Shown here: in pieces, positions 37,395-37,643 of the stretch
Position numbering within the stretch: the stretch's first letter is position 1
Layout of the letters: the number at the start of each line of letters is the position of its first letter
Program-made: the position numbers and the translations under genes
Assembly (NCBI GenBank): GCA_020854825.1
Contig: JAHKLY010000005.1
Location: 1 to 52,833 of the forward strand
Direction: 5' to 3'
Length of the DNA stretch: 52,833 nt
Source: Candidatus Micrarchaeota archaeon
GTDB lineage: Archaea; Micrarchaeota; Micrarchaeia; Anstonellales; JAHKLY01
Notes under the pieces: model-generated
The model's input: the letters and a program-made list of their open reading frames with translations, nothing else
Databases searched by the model: none
What the model was told of the DNA's origin: nothing

Positions 37395-37453
37395 AAAAAT
37401 GCCACGCTATTTGATAACAATCAAATGCGTGCTTTTTTACCAAAGGTAAAAAA
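37395..37453 (-). repeat. Double-hairpin unit in the tRNA-Phe 3' trailer
   Basis: CGTGGCATTTTT duplicated at period 54; same hairpin types as the Gly units. Confidence 0.9.
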
Positions 37454-37595
37454 TGCCACGGGCCGGATTTTCATATACCCCGTTTTCTTTTTGGGGTGAA
37501 GACCTTTTTCTTTTTCTAAAAGAAAAAGGGATTCATTTGAACCAGCGACACCTCCGTCTTCAGCGGAGTGCTCTCCCAGACTGAGCTACCGCGGC
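37454..37595 (-). tRNA. tRNA-Phe(GAA) with a 68-nt T-loop intron (59/60: 37468-37535)
   Basis: GCCGCGG/CCGTGGC acceptor; CTCCG-CTGAAGA-CGGAG; GGTTCAAA|...TGAAAA|TCCGG. Confidence 0.93.
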
Positions 37596-37643
37596 ATTAC
37601 TATGCAGCGGGATTTTCATACAAATGAAAAAGAACCGCGGCAT
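37596..37643 (-). repeat. Hairpin unit in the tRNA-Phe 5' leader
   Basis: ATGCCGCGGT-TCT-TTTTCAT-TTGT-ATGAAAA-TC-CCGCTGCAT-AGTA-ATGCCGCGGT (period 46). Confidence 0.9.

Follow-up and report, generated by a model that had tools for sequence, protein, structure and literature searches.

The duplication of tRNA ends is well known from archaeal viruses and plasmids that integrate at att sites, where a direct repeat of the tRNA end flanks the inserted DNA while the tRNA stays intact. The hairpin units described here, which border tRNA genes in the genome of a Candidatus Micrarchaeota archaeon, likewise place a direct repeat of a tRNA end around an insert next to an intact tRNA; they differ, however, in that the insert measures only about 45 nt and is gene-free, in the presence of an additional inverted copy, in their occurrence at both 5′ and 3′ ends and in the lack of a common integrase. 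In the tyrT locus of Escherichia coli, distal tandem repeats each contain the 3′ end of tRNA-Tyr. These are also tandem, lie downstream of a tRNA gene and repeat its 3′ end, but have a much longer period and possess neither an inverted copy nor a shared hairpin cassette nor a leader counterpart. MITEs and REP/BIME sequences resemble the units in being short, hairpin-forming, intergenic, non-coding and multi-copy, sometimes in tandem; their terminal repeats, however, have a fixed sequence, whereas the outer repeats of the units correspond to the end of the local tRNA.

Guide–target pairing is a hallmark of the ends of IS200/IS605 elements and of the EBS/IBS interactions of group II introns, where each family has a fixed guide and known enzymes. 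The units likewise contain a short stretch complementary to their target, but it changes with the target, and no enzyme was found among the families searched. RNase P, RNase Z and the CCA-adding enzyme accept minihelices of the tRNA acceptor and T-arm as substrates; the leader units share with such minihelices a basal 7-bp cognate acceptor stem stacked on a hairpin. They depart from minihelices by a mismatch at pair 2 or 3, by paired positions −1 and −2, by a longer upper stem and by the absence of a T-loop, and the trailer units are 3 nt out of register. CRISPR arrays consist of identical 24–37-nt repeats and unique non-palindromic spacers and are accompanied by cas genes; identical frames with different hairpins in one related genome (G159, see below) recall such arrays by analogy, although the "spacers" here are palindromic and recur at other loci.

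Template switching is an established mutation mechanism by which reverse-complement copies and perfect stems arise (PMC8794818). The resulting quasi-palindrome mutations, like the units, contain a reverse-complement copy of adjoining sequence, form perfect Watson–Crick stems, generate multi-base compensatory changes and require no dedicated enzyme, and the cases described are single events inside genes. The units, unlike these, constitute a recurring module at tRNA ends, with a direct as well as an inverted copy, an unmirrored spacer and modules common to several loci. A full-text literature search returned no description of such units, which could nevertheless exist in subscription journals or supplements.

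Host Genome and tRNA Gene Detection

The window analysed here, a stretch of 52,833 nt, is contig 1 of an 828-kb genome (7 contigs, 28 % G+C, 97.6 % complete; the host genome in the following) and includes an archaeal LSU rRNA gene. DNA of the organism is also present in sequencing runs from sludge. ARAGORN detected no tRNA genes in the window and Rfam yielded only partial tRNA matches, because most tRNA genes of this organism are interrupted. Between positions 36550 and 37700, tRNA was the only Rfam family to reach its gathering cut-off, with all others far below it and chance-level matches at a relaxed threshold; assignment of the units to an Rfam family was consequently rejected. RNase P RNA was detected with 90 bits. 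The tRNA genes were collected with a custom finder that combines a 7-bp acceptor stem, a 5-bp T-stem and a T-loop motif and allows an insertion in the T-loop; its 35 plausible genes and a tRNA-Gly(GCC) gene added by hand form the set of 36 used below, which is an incomplete list. A T-loop insertion is present in 25 of the 35 genes, non-canonical tRNA introns are plentiful, and exon-complementary segments were found within introns, too.

Hairpin Units at the tRNA-Phe Locus

All features of the window described in the following lie on the reverse strand. The tRNA-Phe(GAA) gene extends over 37454–37595 (partial tRNA model match at 37528–37590) and, as read from the sequence, carries a T-loop insertion of 68 nt at about 37468–37535. 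It is flanked by one leader unit and one trailer unit, each folding into a two-tier hairpin with an inner stem common to Ser or Gly loci and an outer stem made of a direct copy (X) and an imperfect inverted copy (X′) of the Phe end. The leader unit begins with X(1), a direct copy of tRNA positions −2 to +7 (37635–37643, including an exact 8-mer) located 46 nt upstream of the true 5′ end, followed by an inner hairpin at 37613–37630 with 7-bp arms (37630–37624 and 37619–37613), a 4-nt loop and the arm pattern of the Ser leaders. X′ (37602–37610, from reading and folding) equals the reverse complement of X(1) except for a mismatch facing tRNA nucleotide 3, so that eight of nine positions pair, and a 6-nt linker (37596–37601) connects it to tRNA position +1. 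The corresponding direct repeat comprises 16 nt at 88 % identity (37588–37603 and 37634–37649, spacing 46). X′ is the complement of X rather than a copy of the tRNA 3′ strand, as it contains the complement of G4 (C) where the tRNA has U69, and its pairing continues into positions −1 and −2. The leader unit folds with −15.0 kcal/mol (z −4.1), a value reached by none of 200 shuffled sequences. The arm pattern of its hairpin has five matches in the genome, all five in tRNA flanks (Ser-GGA twice, Ser-UGA, the Gly-GCC trailer and Phe). It was also observed that the 3′ arm of the Ser and Phe leader hairpins in the host genome resembles the 3′ end of the T-loop introns of these genes.

On the other side of the gene, hairpin H1 (37433–37453) has a 3-nt core next to its T-run and the complement of this core next to its A-run, with the loop in between, and its 9-bp arms form a perfect inverted repeat (37433–37441 and 37445–37453). 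The T-run, a likely oligo-T terminator, lies immediately behind the discriminator base. Next come a 6-nt X′ (37427–37432), which pairs with 5 nt of the copied tRNA 3′ strand but not with the final three tRNA nucleotides, hairpin H2 (37409–37426) with 7-bp arms, near-identical to the Gly-type hairpin in fold and alignment, and a second copy, in direct orientation, of the final 7 nt of tRNA-Phe with a T5 behind it (37395–37406). The direct repeat measures 19 nt at 84 % identity (37388–37406 and 37442–37460, spacing 54). A polypyrimidine/polypurine hairpin (37359–37390; 14-nt inverted repeat, 100 % complementary) closes the trailer; its pattern matches 73 times in the genome, and members of the same family occur inside tRNA introns and after the Gly trailers. 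Folding of X′, hairpin and direct copy gave −13.6 kcal/mol (z −3.9; 1 of 200 shuffles as good) and that of the whole trailer −19.8 kcal/mol (z −3.4; 0 of 200).

Over 97 nt, the Phe trailer is 81 % identical to the trailer of tRNA-Gly(UCC) (E 2.7e-16), and the differences are mainly confined to both end copies and to the first hairpin's core. Within the end copies the changes are compensatory: two stem pairs are altered on both sides, whereby the direct copy agrees with the end of tRNA-Phe and pairing with the inverted copy is preserved. An earlier note on this DNA, made from the sequence alone, had described the Phe trailer as equipped with Gly-type and the leader with Ser-type hairpins, both with Phe-specific ends, which the alignment and the arm matches bear out. 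The end motifs that it quoted are real copies as well, but the trailer X′ pairs over 5 bp only and the direct repeats are longer than given there.

Other tRNA Genes and General Architecture

About nine of the 36 tRNA genes carry units and about three quarters do not. Exact 8-nt copies of a gene's own 5′ end within 200 nt upstream were found for four of the 36 tRNAs, namely Ser-GGA (four copies), His (two), Phe and one Leu gene (one each), while the upstream copy of Ser-UGA is a one-base variant. For non-cognate combinations, the same search gave six matches in 1240 pairs, five of them in adjoining tRNA gene bodies and one in the variant unit of Ser-UGA, and the 5′ copies are thus clearly specific to the local tRNA. 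Counts of inverted copies within 60 nt (up to one mismatch; cognate 2/36, non-cognate 23/1240) discriminate weakly, and proximal units are often degenerate; the case that X′ tracks the local end is hence argued from the folds of the units and not from these counts. Upstream of tRNA-Ser(GGA) (gene 10700–10909), four leader units at 10910–11118 each reproduce the first 8 nt of the tRNA exactly (TRF period 52). At the His locus, the sequence preceding X′ was noticed to resemble the 3′ part of the T-loop. Trailer units follow Phe (one), Gly-UCC (two), Gly-GCC (at least three) and a tRNA with a CAT anticodon (three, one of them degenerate), and every trailer copy in the host genome is succeeded by a T-run. 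Those of tRNA-Gly(UCC) (37011–37122, gene 37123–37265; alignment and fold) each close with the final 6 nt of the tRNA, copied, and the T-run, and those of tRNA-Gly(GCC) occupy 36600–36763 (gene 36764–36932) with a period of about 53 nt (TRF: period 53, 2.9 copies).

The units are 46–56 nt long in the host genome and 49–58 nt in G159, and the inserts of 40–50 nt contain no ORF. Considered as target-site duplications, the direct copies on either side vary in length, from 8 exact nucleotides up to 16–19 nt at 84–88 % identity. In leader units, X is followed by 2–4 unpaired nucleotides, a perfect 7–10-bp hairpin, 1–3 nt, X′, a linker and the next X, where X represents nucleotides 1–7 of the acceptor strand and U8, often with flanking bases, and X′ the complement of nucleotides 1–7, usually with one mismatch opposite nucleotide 2 or 3. 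Trailer units run from X (the tRNA 3′ end) through a linker or T-rich hairpin, X′ and a hairpin to the next X, and their X′ is complementary to the 3′ strand but ends 3 nt short of the tRNA end. The hairpin (in leaders together with a short linker) is common to different tRNA genes, and X and X′ are locus-specific. By reading, the first X sits at the distance from a TATA-like box at which position +1 sits in unit-less tRNA genes; the units should therefore be transcribed as leader.

The stems of 35 units, two of which (L038 and L042) look like non-unit GC-rich sequence, comprise 500 Watson–Crick pairs, nine internal G–U pairs and seven C–A oppositions. The latter two show no strand preference and do not separate RNA-level from DNA-level constraint. 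A comparison of sense and antisense stability (sense more stable in 40 of 60) was discarded owing to duplicates, the inclusion of both strands of the Trp array and GC-rich false positives. Near-pure Watson–Crick stems are what copying would yield and slow compensatory evolution would not.

Distribution, Gain and Loss in Related Genomes

Within the order, at least three families show the architecture upstream of tRNA-Ser, and it is also present at genes for Trp, Pro, Leu and Gly. When the order's 176 genomes were probed with a duplicated Ser 5′ 8-mer, 23 gave a match, with none in families f6 (0/42) and f10 (0/19); among 32 distinct segments between such copies, 25 fold as two-tier hairpins and seven are unrelated GC-rich sequences. 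With a stricter probe, 12 of 401 genomes sampled across the phylum matched. These belong to f1 (the host genome and G001), f9 (8/76) and f7 (1/2), and the sole match outside the order looked unlike a unit by eye; the reversed control probe gave single matches in four genomes. The trailer sequence pattern, on the other hand, is limited to genus g1 (2/41 genomes). Judged by these sequence patterns, the particular hairpin sequences are genus-specific and the architecture is not. No unit was apparent by reading at the 11 parsed tRNA-Phe loci of other genomes of the order, a count leaving out seven unparsed loci (L007, L013, L014, L016, L017, L018 and L020); the 11 parsed loci have a plain promoter and a short leader.

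Further instances come from other genomes. Of 21 tRNA genes in G159, two Ser genes (two and one copies), Trp (seven copies, 54-nt period) and Pro (one) carry leader copies, and a Leu gene has two copies with one changed base, for which X′ fits the true tRNA 5′ end better than the mutated upstream copies. Trailer copies are present at two Ser genes and one other tRNA of this genome. In G153, a trailer unit repeats the last 15 nt of a Gly gene, and a perfect 7-bp unit lies 1 nt after tRNA-Gly in G133. In genus g43, near-identical hairpins were seen at Ser, Trp and Pro genes as well as at some non-tRNA intergenic sites. The scheme put forward in the earlier note (X, hairpin, X′, linker and again X, with hairpins in common and X dictated by the locus) consequently holds at the other loci of the host genome and in other genera. 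Its expectation that X′ tracks the cognate end was confirmed in the same places but fails in part in G001, where the X of the Phe units deviates from the tRNA end at two of eight positions.

Modules are shared between loci. In G159, the Ser, Trp and Pro units have hairpins and linker in common and tRNA-specific X and X′. The Pro unit combines the hairpin of a congener's Ser units with the linker of a G159 Ser unit, with X and X′ both specific for Pro, such that exactly 8 and 7 nt are replaced inside an otherwise identical module when Pro is compared with Ser. As the unit is absent at all three congeneric Pro loci recovered, the most fitting interpretation is a recent gain, with the two end copies presumably written from the new target, and it is what a target-copying process, as suggested in the earlier note, predicts. 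Furthermore, three Ser units of G159 share identical X, X′ and linker but enclose three unrelated hairpins, and the same hairpin types are found at Trp and Pro.

Empty and filled alleles of the same site thus both exist, in G159 versus its congeners and likewise between the host genome and G001, whose unit numbers amount to 4 versus 2 at Ser-GGA, 1 versus 0 at Ser-UGA, 2 versus 0 at Gly-UCC and 1 versus at least 4 in the Phe trailer. The four near-identical Phe trailer units of G001 share the same drifted X, which shows that arrays grow by duplication of units and not by copying the tRNA anew each time.

Partner Enzymes and Splicing Motifs

Searches for partner enzymes covered Y1_Tnp, RVT_1, TnpB and tyrosine integrases and revealed no consistent partner. 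Y1_Tnp was absent from the host genome and present in one of seven genomes of genus g43 (41 of 176 genomes of the order have one); a REP/BIME system with a RAYT transposase was rejected on these grounds. No RVT_1 domain was found in the host genome, G159 and G156, that is, in three of the five array-bearing genomes searched, and TnpB gave nothing above the cut-off in five genomes. As to integrases, the host genome contains only a 43-aa fragment and G159 and G153 none; together with the short, ORF-less inserts, this led to the rejection of an element integrated at a tRNA att site. G001 encodes two stand-alone reverse transcriptases of about 345 aa, the neighbourhoods of which contain no unit-type hairpins, and G153 encodes a partial one; ordinary intergenic hairpins follow the reverse transcriptase gene of G153. 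No link was found between the reverse transcriptases and the units.

A scan of the Ser, Phe, Gly and His loci for bulge–helix–bulge (BHB) motifs produced many AT-rich or low-complexity matches and one self-complementary G–U artefact spanning a Ser unit. The scan was crude, as its strict inner-helix rule also missed a real T-loop intron, and within this limit no BHB motif at both boundaries was found that would make the units archaeal BHB introns.

Origin of the Units

We tentatively favour the view, at a probability of roughly 0.4, that the units are palindromic repeats of DNA-level origin which, in one archaeal order, occupy the transcribed flanks of some tRNA genes, a minority of the total. 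Template switching would make them and adapt them to new targets, slippage would resize them, and they would be tolerated owing to their removal by RNase P and RNase Z. The host's replication or repair machinery would switch template at a hairpin and copy the adjoining tRNA end in reverse, thereby creating or rewriting X′; slippage or unequal exchange between direct copies would add or remove whole units, and short ectopic exchanges would carry hairpin and linker modules among loci. With the first X at the usual +1 position behind the promoter, the units would be transcribed as leader or trailer and be cut off by RNase P and RNase Z, so that such DNA could reside safely at tRNA gene ends. The near-constant single mismatch in X′ may be retained since X′ would, if perfect, be a competitor of the true acceptor stem.

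A reverse-complement copy with Watson–Crick arms, as expected from template switching, is observed (500 Watson–Crick versus 9 G–U pairs). Contiguous mirroring, also expected, is not: in nearly all units the 2–4-nt spacer between X and the hairpin lacks a pairing partner, and the linker does not form a palindrome either. Two or more separate events, or some other process, would thus be needed. The exact replacement of 8 and 7 nt in the Pro module of G159 is likewise awkward for undirected switching, the identical Ser frames with three different hairpins are not predicted by simple duplication, and the mismatch opposite nucleotide 2 or 3, which recurs in many genera, could together with the spread over several families reflect selection for an RNA function. 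The unmirrored spacer, the exact boundaries, the varied hairpins in identical frames and the recurrent mismatch keep our confidence in template switching modest and sustain two rivals, a selected cis-acting RNA element and a dedicated mobile element.

As a cis-acting element of the pre-tRNA, the units would be look-alikes of the cognate acceptor stem, with a basal stem on a hairpin and nucleotides 8–9 bulged, maintained by selection as a decoy, as a signal for processing, folding or stability or, where the genus is AT-rich, as a repeated terminator module, and the shared hairpins might stem from occasional gene conversion. This is rather unlikely in our judgment, despite the occurrence of the architecture in at least three families, the recurrence of the two-tier fold with different inner stems (z about −4), of the mismatch and of the 2-nt bulge, the Leu X′ of G159 that follows the real tRNA end, the perfect unit behind tRNA-Gly in G133 and the T-run after every trailer copy of the host genome. 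Against it stand the restriction of units to about a quarter of the tRNAs, their presence or absence at the same gene between congeners, the lack of Ser probe matches in f6 and f10, the rarity of G–U pairs, the drifted Phe units of G001 and the trailer stems, which are shifted 3 nt into the T-stem strand and hence do not mimic an acceptor stem. A non-autonomous mobile element would insert hairpin and linker at tRNA ends by means of an enzyme not recognised here and either copy the target both ways or use X′ as a guide. The near-identical hairpins at different tRNA genes and some non-tRNA intergenic sites of g43, the swap of X and X′ at exact boundaries, the one filled and three empty Pro sites and the different hairpins in identical frames within one array would agree with such an element. 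We nevertheless think it distinctly unlikely: no Y1 transposase, reverse transcriptase, TnpB or integrase is common to the array-bearing genomes, the host genome is small and 97.6 % complete, the arrays of G001 result from unit-by-unit duplication rather than fresh copying, and the same mismatch throughout an array argues against independent insertions. The fixed-sequence MITE that the earlier note had already discounted does not fit, since the outer inverted repeats differ among the Phe, Ser, His, Leu, Gly, Trp and Pro loci instead of forming one common terminal repeat, and no related autonomous transposase was found in the host genome for the four enzyme families searched. Slippage alone, as also stated there, fails to account for the inverted copy.

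Decayed tandem tRNA copies, that is, mini-pseudogenes that retain the acceptor strands and one arm, would explain the identity of X with the tRNA end, and the resemblance of the Ser and Phe leader hairpins to T-loop introns and of the His unit to the T-loop points in the same direction. The earlier note had listed simple tRNA gene duplication among the outcomes that would speak against its reading, and a tandem tRNA pseudogene was rejected here: X′ is not the 3′ acceptor strand, given that the Phe X′ has the complement of G4 instead of the U and pairs with −1 and −2, the trailer X′ is out of register by 3 nt, one hairpin and linker serves unrelated tRNAs, and the Phe and Gly trailers are 81 % identical despite different tRNAs, all of which leaves this already disfavoured idea little credence. 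An origin at the RNA level, in which the splicing machinery cuts and ligates and the product is reverse transcribed, akin to the birth of BHB introns, had been offered in the earlier note as well. It draws on the 25 of 35 tRNAs with a T-loop insertion and on the exon-complementary segments in introns, but has to contend with the absence of a reverse transcriptase from three of five array-bearing genomes, with the stand-alone nature of those in G001 and G153 (and no unit-type context in G001) and with a BHB scan across the units that returned low-complexity or self-complementary matches only, with no credible motif excising a unit; we consider it very improbable. An assembly or library artefact, finally, might be suspected because de Bruijn graphs are broken by short repeats and the Logan contigs are fragmented here. 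One 215-nt contig, however, reproduces 37360–37574 without differences in three of four separately assembled DNA runs, and the same architecture is found in more than 15 other genomes, which rules out the chimera that the earlier note had listed and leaves an artefact with a negligible probability.

Beyond template switching, a bolder interpretation is that the units represent a new kind of mobile or self-propagating DNA. A cassette of hairpin and linker would copy about 7–8 nt of its target directly and in reverse on arrival, perhaps with the aid of an unrecognised enzyme of the host or the element, so that the outer stem is rewritten for each tRNA, and would be concealed in the parts discarded by RNase P and RNase Z, in the way that splicing conceals an intron. 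We regard this as conceivable but somewhat doubtful.

Significance

Units and introns together explain the failure of standard tRNA finders in this organism, which is relevant to the annotation of such genomes. The pattern of hairpins that copy tRNA ends hints at an uncommon mode of DNA copying. Should the units arise by copying of their target, they would be a natural case of short DNA modules in which the target serves to rewrite the specificity segment, and archaeal template switching could be studied in them as a clean, repeated system. Should they have a function, they would constitute an unrecognised class of leader and trailer elements of pre-tRNAs in an order of small-genome archaea with unusually fragmented tRNA genes.

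Possible joint exchange of a tRNA end and its trailer array

The units considered here are two-tier hairpins in tRNA leaders and trailers, the outer stem of which pairs a direct with an inverted copy of the local tRNA end. Between the Micrarchaeota genome under study (G000) and its congener G001, the tRNA-Gly(UCC) gene (window 37123-37265, compared with the G001 locus L002) differs by two base pairs of the acceptor stem, and the trailer array is found only in the congener whose tRNA 3' end matches the end copy of the Gly-GCC type. A joint exchange may have affected both the array and the end of the tRNA. 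The Phe trailer at the same G001 locus (G001:C62) holds at least four units, a count that is a lower bound because the first unit is broken by 10 consecutive N, which stand for either a gap or withheld sequence.

In genome G133, at about position 1500 of locus L046 (G133:C13), a Ser-type unit whose 7-bp basal stem is perfect lies between a tRNA-Gly gene, which ends 1 nt before the unit, and tRNA-Ser; the two tRNAs are likely dicistronic.

Hairpins beyond the tRNA flanks and reverse transcriptases

Members of the hairpin families known from the tRNA units are likewise arranged in tandem in non-tRNA intergenic DNA of g43, another genus of the order (L061, L064, L065, L070, and L107), for example, immediately 3' of the stop codon of a reverse transcriptase (RT) gene in G153:C105. 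Common to two of these loci, L064 and L070, is a hairpin with a linker-like motif behind it. Among the array-bearing genomes searched with RVT_1, stand-alone RTs of about 345 aa were found in G001 (L108, G001:C41; L109, G001:C6) and in G153 (L107, G153:C105), and none in G000, G159, or G156. Their best PADLOC matches were a generic RT model and CRISPR-associated or UG17-like RTs. The surroundings of the RT in G001:C6 are GC-rich and may represent foreign DNA.

Contig ends and RNase P RNA of G000

Tandem repeats with a period of 66 nt lie at or near contig ends of G000 (C5:1-745, C6:15-869, and C7:10120-10487). Since the copies in C5 and C6 are apparently mutual reverse complements, these two contigs may be joined at the repeats. 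A short archaeal RNase P RNA (210 nt; 90 bits) was located at G000:C4:106766-106975, and roughly 300 nt downstream of it lies an intron-rich tRNA with a CAT anticodon and a trailer array.

Interrupted tRNA genes and a recurrent intron hairpin

Most tRNA genes of G000 are interrupted (e. g., window 37468-37535 and 10700-10909). In the output of our own tRNA finder, 25 of 35 tRNAs carry an insertion of 33-98 nt that separates the T-loop from the T-stem's 3' strand, and several tRNAs have additional insertions in the D-loop or anticodon loop. ARAGORN detected no tRNA gene within the window, and its genome-wide total of 11 includes mis-joined predictions. A polypyrimidine/polypurine hairpin family (window 37359-37390, 36975-37005, and 37497-37535) is located within tRNA introns and immediately 3' of trailer arrays. 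Pattern matches to it number 73 across G000, and similar stretches frequently recurred in BLAST searches of the order's other genomes (e. g., 35 matches in G017). This hairpin may constitute a mobile or convergent intron core.
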